DNA of 64,000 nt from contig JAXHLW010000013.1 in the NCBI GenBank assembly GCA_034521815.1, forward strand, positions 224,001 to 288,000. Reading direction: 5' to 3'. Position 1 is the stretch's first letter; every line of letters starts with the position of its first letter. This stretch comes from Trueperaceae bacterium. Its GTDB lineage: Bacteria > Deinococcota > Deinococci > Deinococcales > Trueperaceae. Below are positions 18,978 through 21,900 of this stretch, in pieces. Position numbers: made by a program.

Positions 18978-21900
18978 ACCGTGCGAGACGGCGTCGGCGC
19001 CCTCCCGCTCGGCGATGTCGATCATGTGCTTGGCGATCAGCGGGCGCGCGAAGCTCGTGCCCAGCAGGTAGTAGCCCTCGTAGAGGGCGCTCGCGCGGAG
19101 CACGGGGAAGACGAAGTCGCGGACGAACTCCTCCTGGAGGTCCACGGCGTAGGCGGCCTTCGCGCCGGTCGCCATCGCCTTGGTCTTCGCCTCCTCGACC
19201 TCTTCGCCCTGGCCGATGTCGGCGGTGAAGGCGATCACCTCGGCGCCGTAGGTCTCCTTGATCCAGGCGAGGATGACCGAGGTGTCCAGACCTCCGGAGT
19301 AGGCGAGAACGACGTTCTTCACGGGTGATTTCATGGTTCCTCCATCACGAAGACGGCCCACGGACCCGTGGTCACGCAGACGACGGCGCCCGTGGGGAAC
19401 GGGGTCAGCGGCGTCGGGCGCGGAGCGGGGTGTGAGCCGGTAGGTTCATCGAAAAAGGGTCCTGCAAGCGTATGCAAGCAGCGCGATAACGTTGCGCAAT
19501 GTAGCACCGGACTCGGGAGCGGTCAAGAGAGATCGGACCCCGCCAGCGGCGTTCTCCTGGGCCCCCTGGGGCGGATCCCGGACGCCGCGGCGCAGCCCAG
19601 CACCAACGCCGCCCCCGCCAGCCCCCAGGCGCCCAGCCGCTCGCCGTACAGCGCCCAGGCCAGCGCGCCGGCGACCAGCGGCTCGACCGTCGCGACCAGC
19701 ACGGCGCGCGACGCGGTCGCGCGCCGCAGCCCCAGGCCGTAGAGCAGGTAGGCGAGGTAGGTCGAGACGATCGCGGCGCCGGCCAGCAACGCCCAGGCCA
19801 GCGGCGGCTTGGCTCCCCACGTCACGAACGGCGCGATCCCGGCCGCGCCCAGCGGCAGCGCCAGTCCGTACAGCTGGACGGGCGCCTGCCGCACCAGCAG
19901 CCGCTTGCCCAACAGGTAGTAGCTCGCGTAGCCGAGCCCGGCGGCCAGCCCCCAGCCGATCGCCGCCGCCGAGGCGGTCACGCCCTCGCCGCGCGCCGAT
20001 GAGACCAGCGCCACGCCCACGACCGAGCCGCCGACCAACAGCCACTGACGCCGTCCCGGTCGCTCTCCCAGCACCGGACCCGCCAGCAGGGTCACCCACG
20101 CCGGTGCGGTGTACAGCAGCACGAACGCCAGGCTGATCCCGCCCAGATCGATCGCGCGGATCAGCGCGACGTAGAAAAGGCTCACGCCGACCGCGGCGAA
20201 GGCGACCGTCGCGAGACCGTTTCGCCACGGGAGCCGCACCAGCCGCCGAGCGGCGAGGGCGTGCGCCAGGAAGGCGCTTCCGCCGAACAGGGCCCGCCAG
20301 AACGCGATCTCGACCGCGCCGACCCCGAGGTCGAGCAGCCCGGCGGTGAACACGCCCAGCAGGCCCCACAGAATCGCGGCGGCCAGCACCAGCGCCAGGC
20401 CGATCGACTCGGCTCGGTCCTCGTTCACGCCTCGGACGTGGGGTCCCGCCTCGTCTCACGTTTCAGGTCGGCGGTCGCGTCGCGCTTCACCACGATCGGC
20501 TGAAGGCCGTACGACCTCGCCAGCTCCGGCCGCTGCTCGCGAAGCAGCCGCATGCGGCGCCGATAGCTGGCCGTCTCGACGGCGAAGCCGATCAGGTTCA
20601 AGGCCCAGAACGCGACGAGCAGCCCCGTTCGGAGGGCGGGCGACAGGCCCAGCGCGCCCTCCCCGGTGCGCCACGCCACGACCGCGTCGGCGGCGACCAG
20701 GGACCAGGGCACGAGCAGCATGAGCCCCCACAGCTCGTCGGCGTGGCCGCTGCCGGGCACCAGCAGCGCGCCGACGTGATACCCCACCGTCCTCGGCGCG
20801 TCGCGGGCGACGCGAGGCCGGGGGATCGCCACGAACGCCACGAGCGCCACGAGAAGCGAGGCGTACGTGATCAGGACCGCCCACCACCCCCAGGCGGGCA
20901 ACGCGAGCGGACGCGCCGCAGGAAGCGCGGACCATGGAGAGGTGGCGGCCCCGGACAGAGCGGATCGCCAGTCGCCCGCCACCGCCAGCCGCAGCTCCAG
21001 CGGCGTGGGGACCGACCAGAGCGGCGCGTCCGGCGTCATCGTGGCGTGGAACGGCGAAGGATCGTCCGTCCGCCCCAGGAGGTGCCGAGCGACCGGCTCG
21101 CGCGGGTCCGCTCGCAGGGCGGCCTCGAGCAGCTCCTCGTCCCCGCCGGCAGCGACCGCCCGGTTGGTGAGCGCCGGCGCCAAGGCGCCCGCGGCGAGCC
21201 ACGCCTCGCGCGCGGCGTCCGGCTCGCCGCGTTGCGCATGCGAGAGCCCCTTCACCAGCGCGGCGTACGCCGTGTCCGGCAGGGCCTCGGTCGCCAGGAT
21301 GGCGGACGGACTCGCCAACGTTCCCGACCGGAGCGAGACGGGCACCTCGTCCATGCCCTGATGCCAGCCGGCCAGAACCGCCTGGAAGCCCGCCAGCGCC
21401 AGGATGGCGACCAGCACCAGCTTCTCCGTGGTGCTGGCGTAGCGCGGCACCCAGGCCCGCGTCAGCGGGCTGTCGGTCCTGCCACGCTCGCGCCGCTGAC
21501 GGCGCAACAGCGACTGCGCGCGCCACACCTTGGCCAGCAGCACCAGCCACAGCAGCGCGAACACGGTCAGCAGCGCAGCGACCCCGCTCCAGCCCAGGCG
21601 AGCCAGGGCCAGGGCGAGCCGGTCCACCCACGTCGTCAGTCCGGCGCTGTCCAGCTCGCGTGCACGCTCGCGCCAGGTCTCGGCCGCCTCGCGGTCGCCG
21701 GCCGCGCGCAGCTCGTCGGCCAGGCGGTGGAGCGTCTCGACGCTGGCGGGGGCCTCTTCCGCCGCGAGGCGCCAAGCGTACGGACCCAGCAGGCGCGCCG
21801 ACGCCAGATCACCGTCGTCGAGGGCACCTTCGAGCGCTCGATCGGGAAAGCCGTAGGCGTCGCGCAGTGCGCGGTCGGTCGCGAGGCGTGGATCGTAGCC

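Follow-up and report, generated by a model that had tools for sequence, protein, structure and literature searches.

An arginine-codon leader upstream of argG in Deinococcota and its putative role as an attenuator nested under ArgR repression

In Deinococcota, the argininosuccinate synthase gene argG is preceded by a short open reading frame (ORF) with conserved arginine codons, and the comparison of upstream regions presented here revealed that this leader is a real, phylum-wide feature. We consider it quite likely that the ORF is a translated, arginine-sensing upstream ORF (uORF). Moreover, with somewhat better than even confidence, we propose that it serves as a ribosome-mediated transcription attenuator of the argG-argH operon, nested under ArgR, whose output would be termination at a hairpin formed in part by the ORF itself.

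The window analyzed in this work is a 64,000-nt stretch of a Trueperaceae genome, and the features discussed below are collected in Table 1. The first-pass annotation had placed an ORF between an ARG-box-like site and argG, with a hairpin 3' of it; the ORF was confirmed, behind a sigma-70-type promoter, and folding recovered the hairpin (H1) just past the stop. At this locus the leader ends with CGC GCC CGA CGC CGC TGA, and a spacer of 70 nt separates its stop from the argG ATG (position 19334). Downstream of argG lie a GNAT gene, argH and a gene encoding an ArgA-like acetyltransferase (TIGR00838 and NF005840 were matched there); judging by the position of the promoter, the leader and argG-GNAT-argH are predicted to share one transcript. 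This promoter was the only promoter-like site within positions 19200-19700 (shuffles expect 0.1), and the same pattern was found 5' of 67 of the 77 Trueperaceae (family f1) leaders and 24 of the 28 leaders of family f2. Among 1334 gene-like starts with a Shine-Dalgarno (SD) sequence in this 84%-complete genome the leader type is unique; further leaderless leaders for amino acids were sought in it without success, and neither cysS nor argF has an evident leader upstream. Rfam gave one chance match in the window (E=4.1) and none at gathering score in six related argG loci. Directly 5' of the promoter, and apparently likewise in many genomes of the family, there is an EamA/DMT-type transporter gene (window 19523-20428, minus strand), whose product is possibly an amino-acid exporter.

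Table 1. Features of the argG leader region in the Trueperaceae window
Feature	Position	Strand	Basis or remark
Sigma-70-type promoter, TTGACC, 17 nt, TG-extended TACATT	19498..19526	-	Pattern scan; predicted start near 19490
ARG-box-like palindrome TGCATACGCTTGCA	19463..19476	-	Conserved palindrome
Leader ORF, 14 codons, unannotated	19405..19449	-	Sequence, family and phylum motif counts, frame test
P1 5' arm CGGCUCAC, leader codons 4-6	19432..19439	-	MFE fold
Leader Arg codons	19422-19420, 19416-19414 (CGA), 19413-19411, 19410-19408	-	Sequence
Hairpin H1 just past the stop, CCCGU/ACGGG	19389..19403	-	Fold; family consensus CCGCUC/GAGCGG
Alternative local hairpin, CCCACGGGC with GUCCGUGGG	19357..19396	-	Constrained folds with the ORF covered; ends 3 nt short of the tail
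P1 3' arm GUGGGCCG	19354..19361	-	MFE fold, ungapped helix
U-rich tail UCUUCGUG, 4 U of 8	19346..19353	-	Candidate release or pause site
argG Shine-Dalgarno GGAGG	19339..19343	-	Sequence
argG, argininosuccinate synthase	18117..19334	-	NCBIfam TIGR00032 and NF001770 over cut-off

Within Trueperaceae, ArgG was sought in 128 genomes. The 30 top-scoring loci were taken first (L010 was dropped, having no upstream DNA) and 80 further upstream regions were added, 78 with the same ArgG type and two with a divergent one; G090 and matches without the N-terminus were left out. The strict motif, i.e., the R-x-R-R end with CGA as its key codon, had been claimed for 27 of the 29 top-scoring loci, and this figure was reproduced. 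In the further set it was present at 46 of the 78 loci (50 if any Arg codon is allowed in place of CGA) and at neither of the two divergent-type argG genes. The reverse strand gave no match, and dinucleotide shuffles gave 7 in 2900 for the top set and 6 in 7800 for the further set (0.1-0.2%). Several details of the first-pass annotation had to be revised. CGA does not directly precede the stop, as at the window locus two codons come between, and exceptions to it exist: 73 of the 77 leaders have CGA as the key codon, three have CGG and one has AGA, the last four all falling in one genus (in the window genome, CGA makes up 8.5% of Arg codons and 14.6% of first codons in RR pairs). Nor is R-x-R-R the conserved unit, since the core is CGA-CGN near the stop, R-x-R being family-specific, and the leader, described earlier as conserved across Trueperaceae, occurs also in the other Deinococcota-group families sampled.

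Many loci without the motif have the palindrome but neither ORF nor hairpin, so these parts seem to be lost together; in genus g19, 10 of 12 loci have a short 5' region of this kind. A genome congeneric with that of the window (L007) has no leader; 54 nt 5' of argG it carries an ATG in the frame of the gene, which looks as though the leader start had been joined to argG by a deletion. At L029, L040 and L046 (g9) and at L039 (g28) the leaders are homologous, and the codon after CGA is now Pro or Tyr (R-S-R-P, R-A-R-Y), which makes them variants with a single CGA. About ten genomes of the family (G010, G011, G021, G027, G028, G087-G089, G102, and G122) encode the divergent ArgG only (29-33% identity), and the leader was absent in both of those checked.

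Outside the family, argG upstream regions were sampled from 90 of 236 genomes. A wider motif (ATG, 6-25 codons, CGA-Arg, 0-3 codons, stop), set after seeing these data, was found at 129 of the 197 argG loci; each of the five families sampled and 39 of 52 genera were represented, these counts spanning related genomes that are not independent. The families contributed 77/107 (f1), 28/30 (f2), 13/15 (f3), 8/15 (f4), and 3/30 (f5); the names behind f2 to f5 are our assumption, based on sequence likeness to titled matches. In the controls, the reverse strand gave 0 and shuffles 85 of 7880. Leaders of f2 (Deinococcus-type) have 7-8 codons and no R-x-R, which points to the codon pair as the conserved unit. 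In the two largest genera of f5 the motif was found at 0 of 11 and 0 of 9 loci, and three loci of genus g54 (a fourth by eye), with an early CGA-CGA in a longer ORF, were left out of the f5 count. The g54 ORFs (L182-L184, L190) are leaderless, have 23-24 codons with CGA-CGA near the start and then His/Lys/Arg runs, and are followed by a GC hairpin and then A rather than U; their leader design is a different one. Furthermore, 6 of the 11 loci of the f5 genus g57 (L189-L199) carry a leaderless ORF of 26-30 codons that overlaps the argG start (stop/start TGATG) and ends with EVN, EVS or EVH, without an Arg pair; translational coupling is possible there.

As a partial substitute for the 78 non-Deinococcota argG controls of the first-pass annotation, an argG-anchored pattern scan across GTDB was used, whose pattern was narrow, so that other forms may occur elsewhere. 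It yielded 93 matches, 80 of them with titles shown. An in-frame ATG was present in all 23 titled Deinococcota matches, named cultivable Deinococcus species included, and nine further matches had Deinococcota-type leaders. Among the remaining 61, an ATG lay in range in 11, of which six were in frames open to the locus edge, and with this narrow pattern no recurring second lineage was evident.

Several features of the leaders argue for translation. The nearest upstream ATG, with any frame allowed, is in frame with CGA-CGN in 125 of 128 loci, the stops interchange (TGA, TAA, and TAG), and all f2 leaders aligned keep the A of CGA (28/28), which is nevertheless paired in only 10 of 27 cases. Together with ArgR and the palindrome, these observations make a putative translated, Arg-codon-sensing leader over ArgR repression well supported by comparison. 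The earlier proposal of ribosome-mediated arginine control on top of ArgR thereby gained comparative support, while the peptide motif that it named gave way to the codon pair: only M and RR are common across families, and no conserved peptide residues were found beyond the sensing codons. It should be stressed that an SD sequence was present 5' of only 4 of the 77 f1 leaders and of none of the 28 f2 leaders, which counts against the model. Leaders of f1 and f2 start 36-66 nt after the -10 element in all but one case; for those of f4, f5 and some of f3 this distance is 7-10 nt, i.e., they are leaderless. L137 retains CGACGT and a hairpin with a U6 tail, its ATG being out of frame, as in a frameshifted or alternative-start leader. 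The high-scoring Arg tRNAs of the window genome are ACG, CCG, CCT and TCT only, and a TadA-like deaminase domain (a candidate TadA) is present, so that I-A wobble is the probable mode of CGA decoding. In Salmonella, the his leader is strongly de-attenuated by CGA pairs (PMC4046918).

The palindrome TGCATACGCTTGCA resembles an ARG box. With a consensus taken from these same loci, boxes that agree with it at 9 or more of 12 positions were found 5' of 108 of the 129 leaders and in 0 of 129 spacer controls, and the window locus may have a second, weaker half-site at 19485-19498. The genome encodes ArgR, and a leader control layered on ArgR repression, with the conserved palindrome as the predicted operator, is well supported by comparison. 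A regular-expression search found two ARG-box-like sites in this genome. The second one (G000:C11, about 11848, minus strand) lies just past the promoter of a secreted-protein gene, whose product resembles by eye an amino-acid ABC binding protein and whose frame appears broken in the assembly; it is a candidate for an uptake system under ArgR control.

The ORF is followed by the hairpin past the stop, a G-rich strand complementary to the ORF, and a U-rich tail. It is predicted to supply the 5' arm of a long hairpin, supported by covariation, whose end is at this tail. At the window locus the ungapped helix P1 reaches -17.0 kcal/mol, with a shuffle p of 0.09. When the 5' part of each f1 ORF was paired with its own spacer, the best ungapped helix had a mean of -17.6 kcal/mol versus -13.6 with spacers of other genera; the residual beyond an additive model was -4.0 kcal/mol (off-genus standard deviation 2.6) and fell below zero at 57 of 77 loci and for 19 of 23 genera, with only 29 of the 77 helices beating shuffles at p<=0.05. 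This ungapped, additive-model test was used after a noisy gapped duplex test had favoured the cognate pair in just 12 of 23 genera. The residuals were -2.1 in f2 (20/28) and -1.5 in f3 (11/13), and the Arg-codon part of the f1 leaders alone had no cognate pairing preference (-18.0 vs -18.0). RNAalifold, run on 43 of the 77 f1 leaders, gave no consensus structure, a result that the varying length of the spacers probably explains. For f2, a 21-pair structure, hand-set from the same sequences, had a covariation of 0.200 vs 0.133 (0 of 500 shuffles, a control that ignores kinship) with nine double changes at one pair, and it paired at 79% as compared with 29-49% in slid controls.

The tails themselves are weak, as the first-pass annotation had noticed in stating that most loci have no U-tract: at least 5 U of 8 were present in 34 of 77 f1 and 13 of 28 f2 loci, which counts against the model, and at least 6 U in 16/77 (f1), 4/28 (f2), 0/13 (f3), and 7/8 (f4). 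Gene-end hairpins of the window genome are U-poor in general (at least 4 U in 8 nt in only 9 of 113), and an intrinsic-terminator scan of the window found none in the leader-argG spacer. On the output, which the earlier description had left unclear, the comparative data favour an ORF-made hairpin followed by a U-rich tail, and not control of the ribosome-binding site (RBS). With the tail picked regardless of the ORF, its distance to the leader stop had a standard deviation of 5.6 nt in f2, 9.0 nt in f3 and 14.1 nt in f1, against 19, 32 and 20 nt, respectively, for its distance to the argG Shine-Dalgarno; where the tail lies thus follows the stop of the leader and not the RBS of argG.

When a ribosome footprint on CGA was blocked in the folds, pairing of the 7 nt before the tail fell from 9.1 to 6.1 (f1), 11.7 to 4.7 (f2) and 8.5 to 2.0 kcal/mol (f3), a drop that arises partly by construction, as blocking a strand lowers pairing; shuffled leaders gave 6.2, 6.6 and 5.1 kcal/mol, respectively. 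More than 2 kcal/mol was lost at 43 of 77 (f1), 24 of 28 (f2) and 12 of 13 (f3) loci, and six f1 loci shifted in the wrong direction. The modelled switch at the window locus is small (10.9 vs 10.7 kcal/mol, with a paired probability of 0.98 vs 0.66). The tail-adjacent pairing is blocked about equally by a ribosome that sits at the stop, so the switch would be one of dwell versus release. No conserved separate antiterminator was found in f1-f3, the window locus having the local alternative hairpin only. At L150 (f4), constrained folds predict an antiterminator for the stalled state and, for the stop state, a perfect terminator before UUUCUUCU, and the sign of this switch is the right one for a biosynthetic attenuator.

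RBS occlusion was also considered as a general output and found unsupported, as the RBS of argG is, on average, not made more accessible when the CGA footprint is blocked: the 30S-window opening cost with the footprint was 10.3 vs 10.2 (f1), 5.8 vs 7.1 (f2) and 5.3 vs 6.7 kcal/mol (f3). In f3 (L156-L170) a highly conserved tail TTTATGCTG lies 44-46 nt past the leader stop and includes a -10-like hexamer TATGCT; it may be a terminator tail, a pause site or an internal promoter. A pause-site-like geometry after the hairpin (GG, 8 nt, YG) was spotted by eye.

In the mechanism that we propose, the leader ORF would be translated and its CGA-CGN pair read by a single ACG/ICG tRNA-Arg, with CGA as a slow, wobble-read codon, I34 being suggested by the TadA-like gene and the slowness by the Salmonella precedent. 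With ample Arg-tRNA, the ribosome would finish and leave, and the ORF RNA could pair with the G-rich strand 45-60 nt past the stop, closing one long hairpin directly before the U-rich tail, a pairing borne out by the covariation. RNA polymerase would presumably be released at the tail, possibly with help from NusA, NusG or Rho. With scarce Arg-tRNA, the ribosome would dwell on the Arg codons and cover the 5' arm, and transcription would read into argG. Most families would thus rely on ribosome dwell versus release without a conserved antiterminator, and one f4 genus on a classical terminator/antiterminator pair.

The same sensor could be coupled to a Rho-dependent output, in which the C-rich ORF is a rut site hidden by the dwelling ribosome and the hairpin and tail are a pause only. 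The ORF plus 18 nt is indeed C-rich (45% C / 23% G in f1, 46% / 21% in f2), a Rho gene is present, the tails are weak, and PMC12360218 provides precedents in speFL and tnaC; yet in the rut-site test, which found C above G, the C-rich strand was predicted to be paired. This strand is accounted for as the partner of the covarying G-rich strand and would be double-stranded, while the leader RNA is short, several genera have tails of 6-7 U, and f4 leaders are not C-rich, which leaves this output with a small probability. The helix could instead act after transcription, by hiding the argG RBS or setting mRNA stability as in Salmonella speF (PMC6386406), and in many f1 loci, the window locus included, the free fold does extend to the SD; however, the opening cost given above is not lower in the stalled state in f1, f2 or f3, and as much as 128 nt can separate the end of the helix from the SD. 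We regard such an output as having a slim chance.

Other explanations concern what the ORF senses, if anything. It might report translation speed or I34 modification and not arginine, an always-slow CGA timing the folding or setting basal read-through, as CGA pairs stall in Salmonella without starvation being reported in the part of PMC4046918 available, and the rare replacements of CGA are other rare Arg codons. Against this, the slow codon is always one for Arg and the motif stands only before argG among the 1334 starts; we find this improbable, if a shade more credible than the RBS or stability output. An untranslated ORF, i.e., a conserved RNA structure or protein site that happens to read as Arg codons, would agree with the missing SD and with most of CGACG being paired, but the in-frame ATG (125/128), the use of three stop codons, the unpaired invariant A and the leaderless starts in f4 and f5 make it very unlikely. 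Least probable, in our view, is a nascent peptide sensing a metabolite (ornithine, citrulline or arginine) or, via R-x-R, macrolides: f1 peptides do end in R-x-R, the +X+ motif (PMC12583479), and SpeFL is a precedent, but apart from RR the residues are free to vary, with compensatory changes in the RNA; the f2 peptides, 7-8 residues long, lack R-x-R; and conservation extends to the codon and not only to the residue. The ribosome-mediated attenuator thus remains the reading that we prefer.

With classical attenuators the argG leader shares a short ORF with conserved tandem cognate codons before a biosynthetic operon, stalling that is predicted to allow read-through, and, in the f4 genus, a full terminator/antiterminator pair. 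It differs in that the amino acid is arginine, that the 5' arm of the helix next to the tail is provided in f1-f3 by the ORF, and that these families have no separate conserved antiterminator, often weak tails and no SD. In its proposed logic the argG leader works like a classical attenuator but is not classed as one, no conserved separate antiterminator having been found in f1-f3. The E. coli trp attenuator is likewise layered under a repressor. Arginine synthesis is usually described as ArgR repression plus feedback inhibition without attenuation, and the E. coli arg genes are not known to be attenuated; a lysine leader of Thermus has reportedly been published. The general leader-attenuator scheme (trp, his, leu, thr, ilv, and phe) is stated in PMC4007540, a study of Deinococcus deserti, and its 14 predicted leader peptides (Table S9) include none for arginine, which bears out the absence claimed earlier. 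Those leaders belong to the same phylum and follow the same proposed logic, being short ORFs before amino-acid synthesis and tRNA-synthetase genes, but they start at or 1 nt from the transcription start site (TSS), whereas the argG leaders of f1 and f2 are found some 30-60 nt into the transcript, past the predicted operator.

Three further systems are comparable, as far as the available parts of the respective papers describe them. In speFL/orf34 of Salmonella and E. coli (PMC6386406, PMC12360218), two consecutive Arg codons of a uORF mediate the control by arginine, and pausing raises downstream expression; unlike the argG leader, it has 34 codons, targets ornithine decarboxylase, and acts through Rho, RBS unfolding, RNase G and ornithine capture. 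The rbfL leader peptide of Staphylococcus aureus (PMC13009471) also senses arginine limitation via slow Arg codons, but these are AGA/AGG, the paused ribosome blocks the RBS and represses, and the target is a biofilm regulator. In E. coli argL-argF (10.1101/511675) a small ORF is translated at an arginine-synthesis gene, but argL overlaps the argF 5' end, its translation lowers argF, and no arginine sensing is reported in the text available. The Arg-codon uORFs found in the literature searched act on other targets. The accessible parts of PMC4833913 and PMC3862929 add nothing specific, and an argG leader peptide was found neither in full-text literature nor by locus tag, while subscription papers, RegPrecise and large attenuator prediction sets could hold such a prediction. 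The leader-attenuation logic is known for other amino acids, and no description of it for arginine synthesis was found in the literature searched. If true, the phylum-wide argG leader would add arginine to the amino acids with biosynthetic attenuators and would be a compact model of how termination can be controlled where U-tracts are weak, an SD is missing and, in most families, there is no antiterminator. Somewhat more tentatively, and a little short of even confidence, we suggest that it may be ancestral to Deinococcota and the first attenuator of the leader-peptide type in bacterial arginine biosynthesis, with the coding strand as the terminator 5' arm and one wobble-read CGA as the sensor, which one lineage would have re-engineered to a classical antiterminator and Thermus-type genomes would have lost.

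Expression data are available for two members of the phylum. For D. deserti argG, the supplements of PMC4007540 list starts at +1 and -152, the latter question-marked, with 117 and 264 reads, respectively. The starts predicted for f2 lie 127-225 nt 5' of argG, a range that includes -152; the +1 leaderless start, with the motif GAGAAT in the same source, would bypass the leader, which counts against the model. At L128 (f2; three RNA-seq runs of one study), sense depth was 2-31 over the leader vs 33-115 over most of argG, and read starts were present near the argG start. No listed RNA end was found at the L128 tail in these random-fragment runs, in which short structured RNAs are easily lost, and the runs thus do not support a terminated leader. 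This depth fits a second, leaderless argG start together with a repressed or lost short RNA. A GGAGAAT-like sequence 7-13 nt before the argG ATG, maybe both SD and -10 box, was observed at L111-L140 and L156-L170, and it might act as a basal promoter from which argG is transcribed without the leader. Within L128:1477-1540, opposite-strand read starts were present at 1477-1478 in two of the runs, and an antisense TSS for argG is apparently listed for D. deserti too (PMC4007540).
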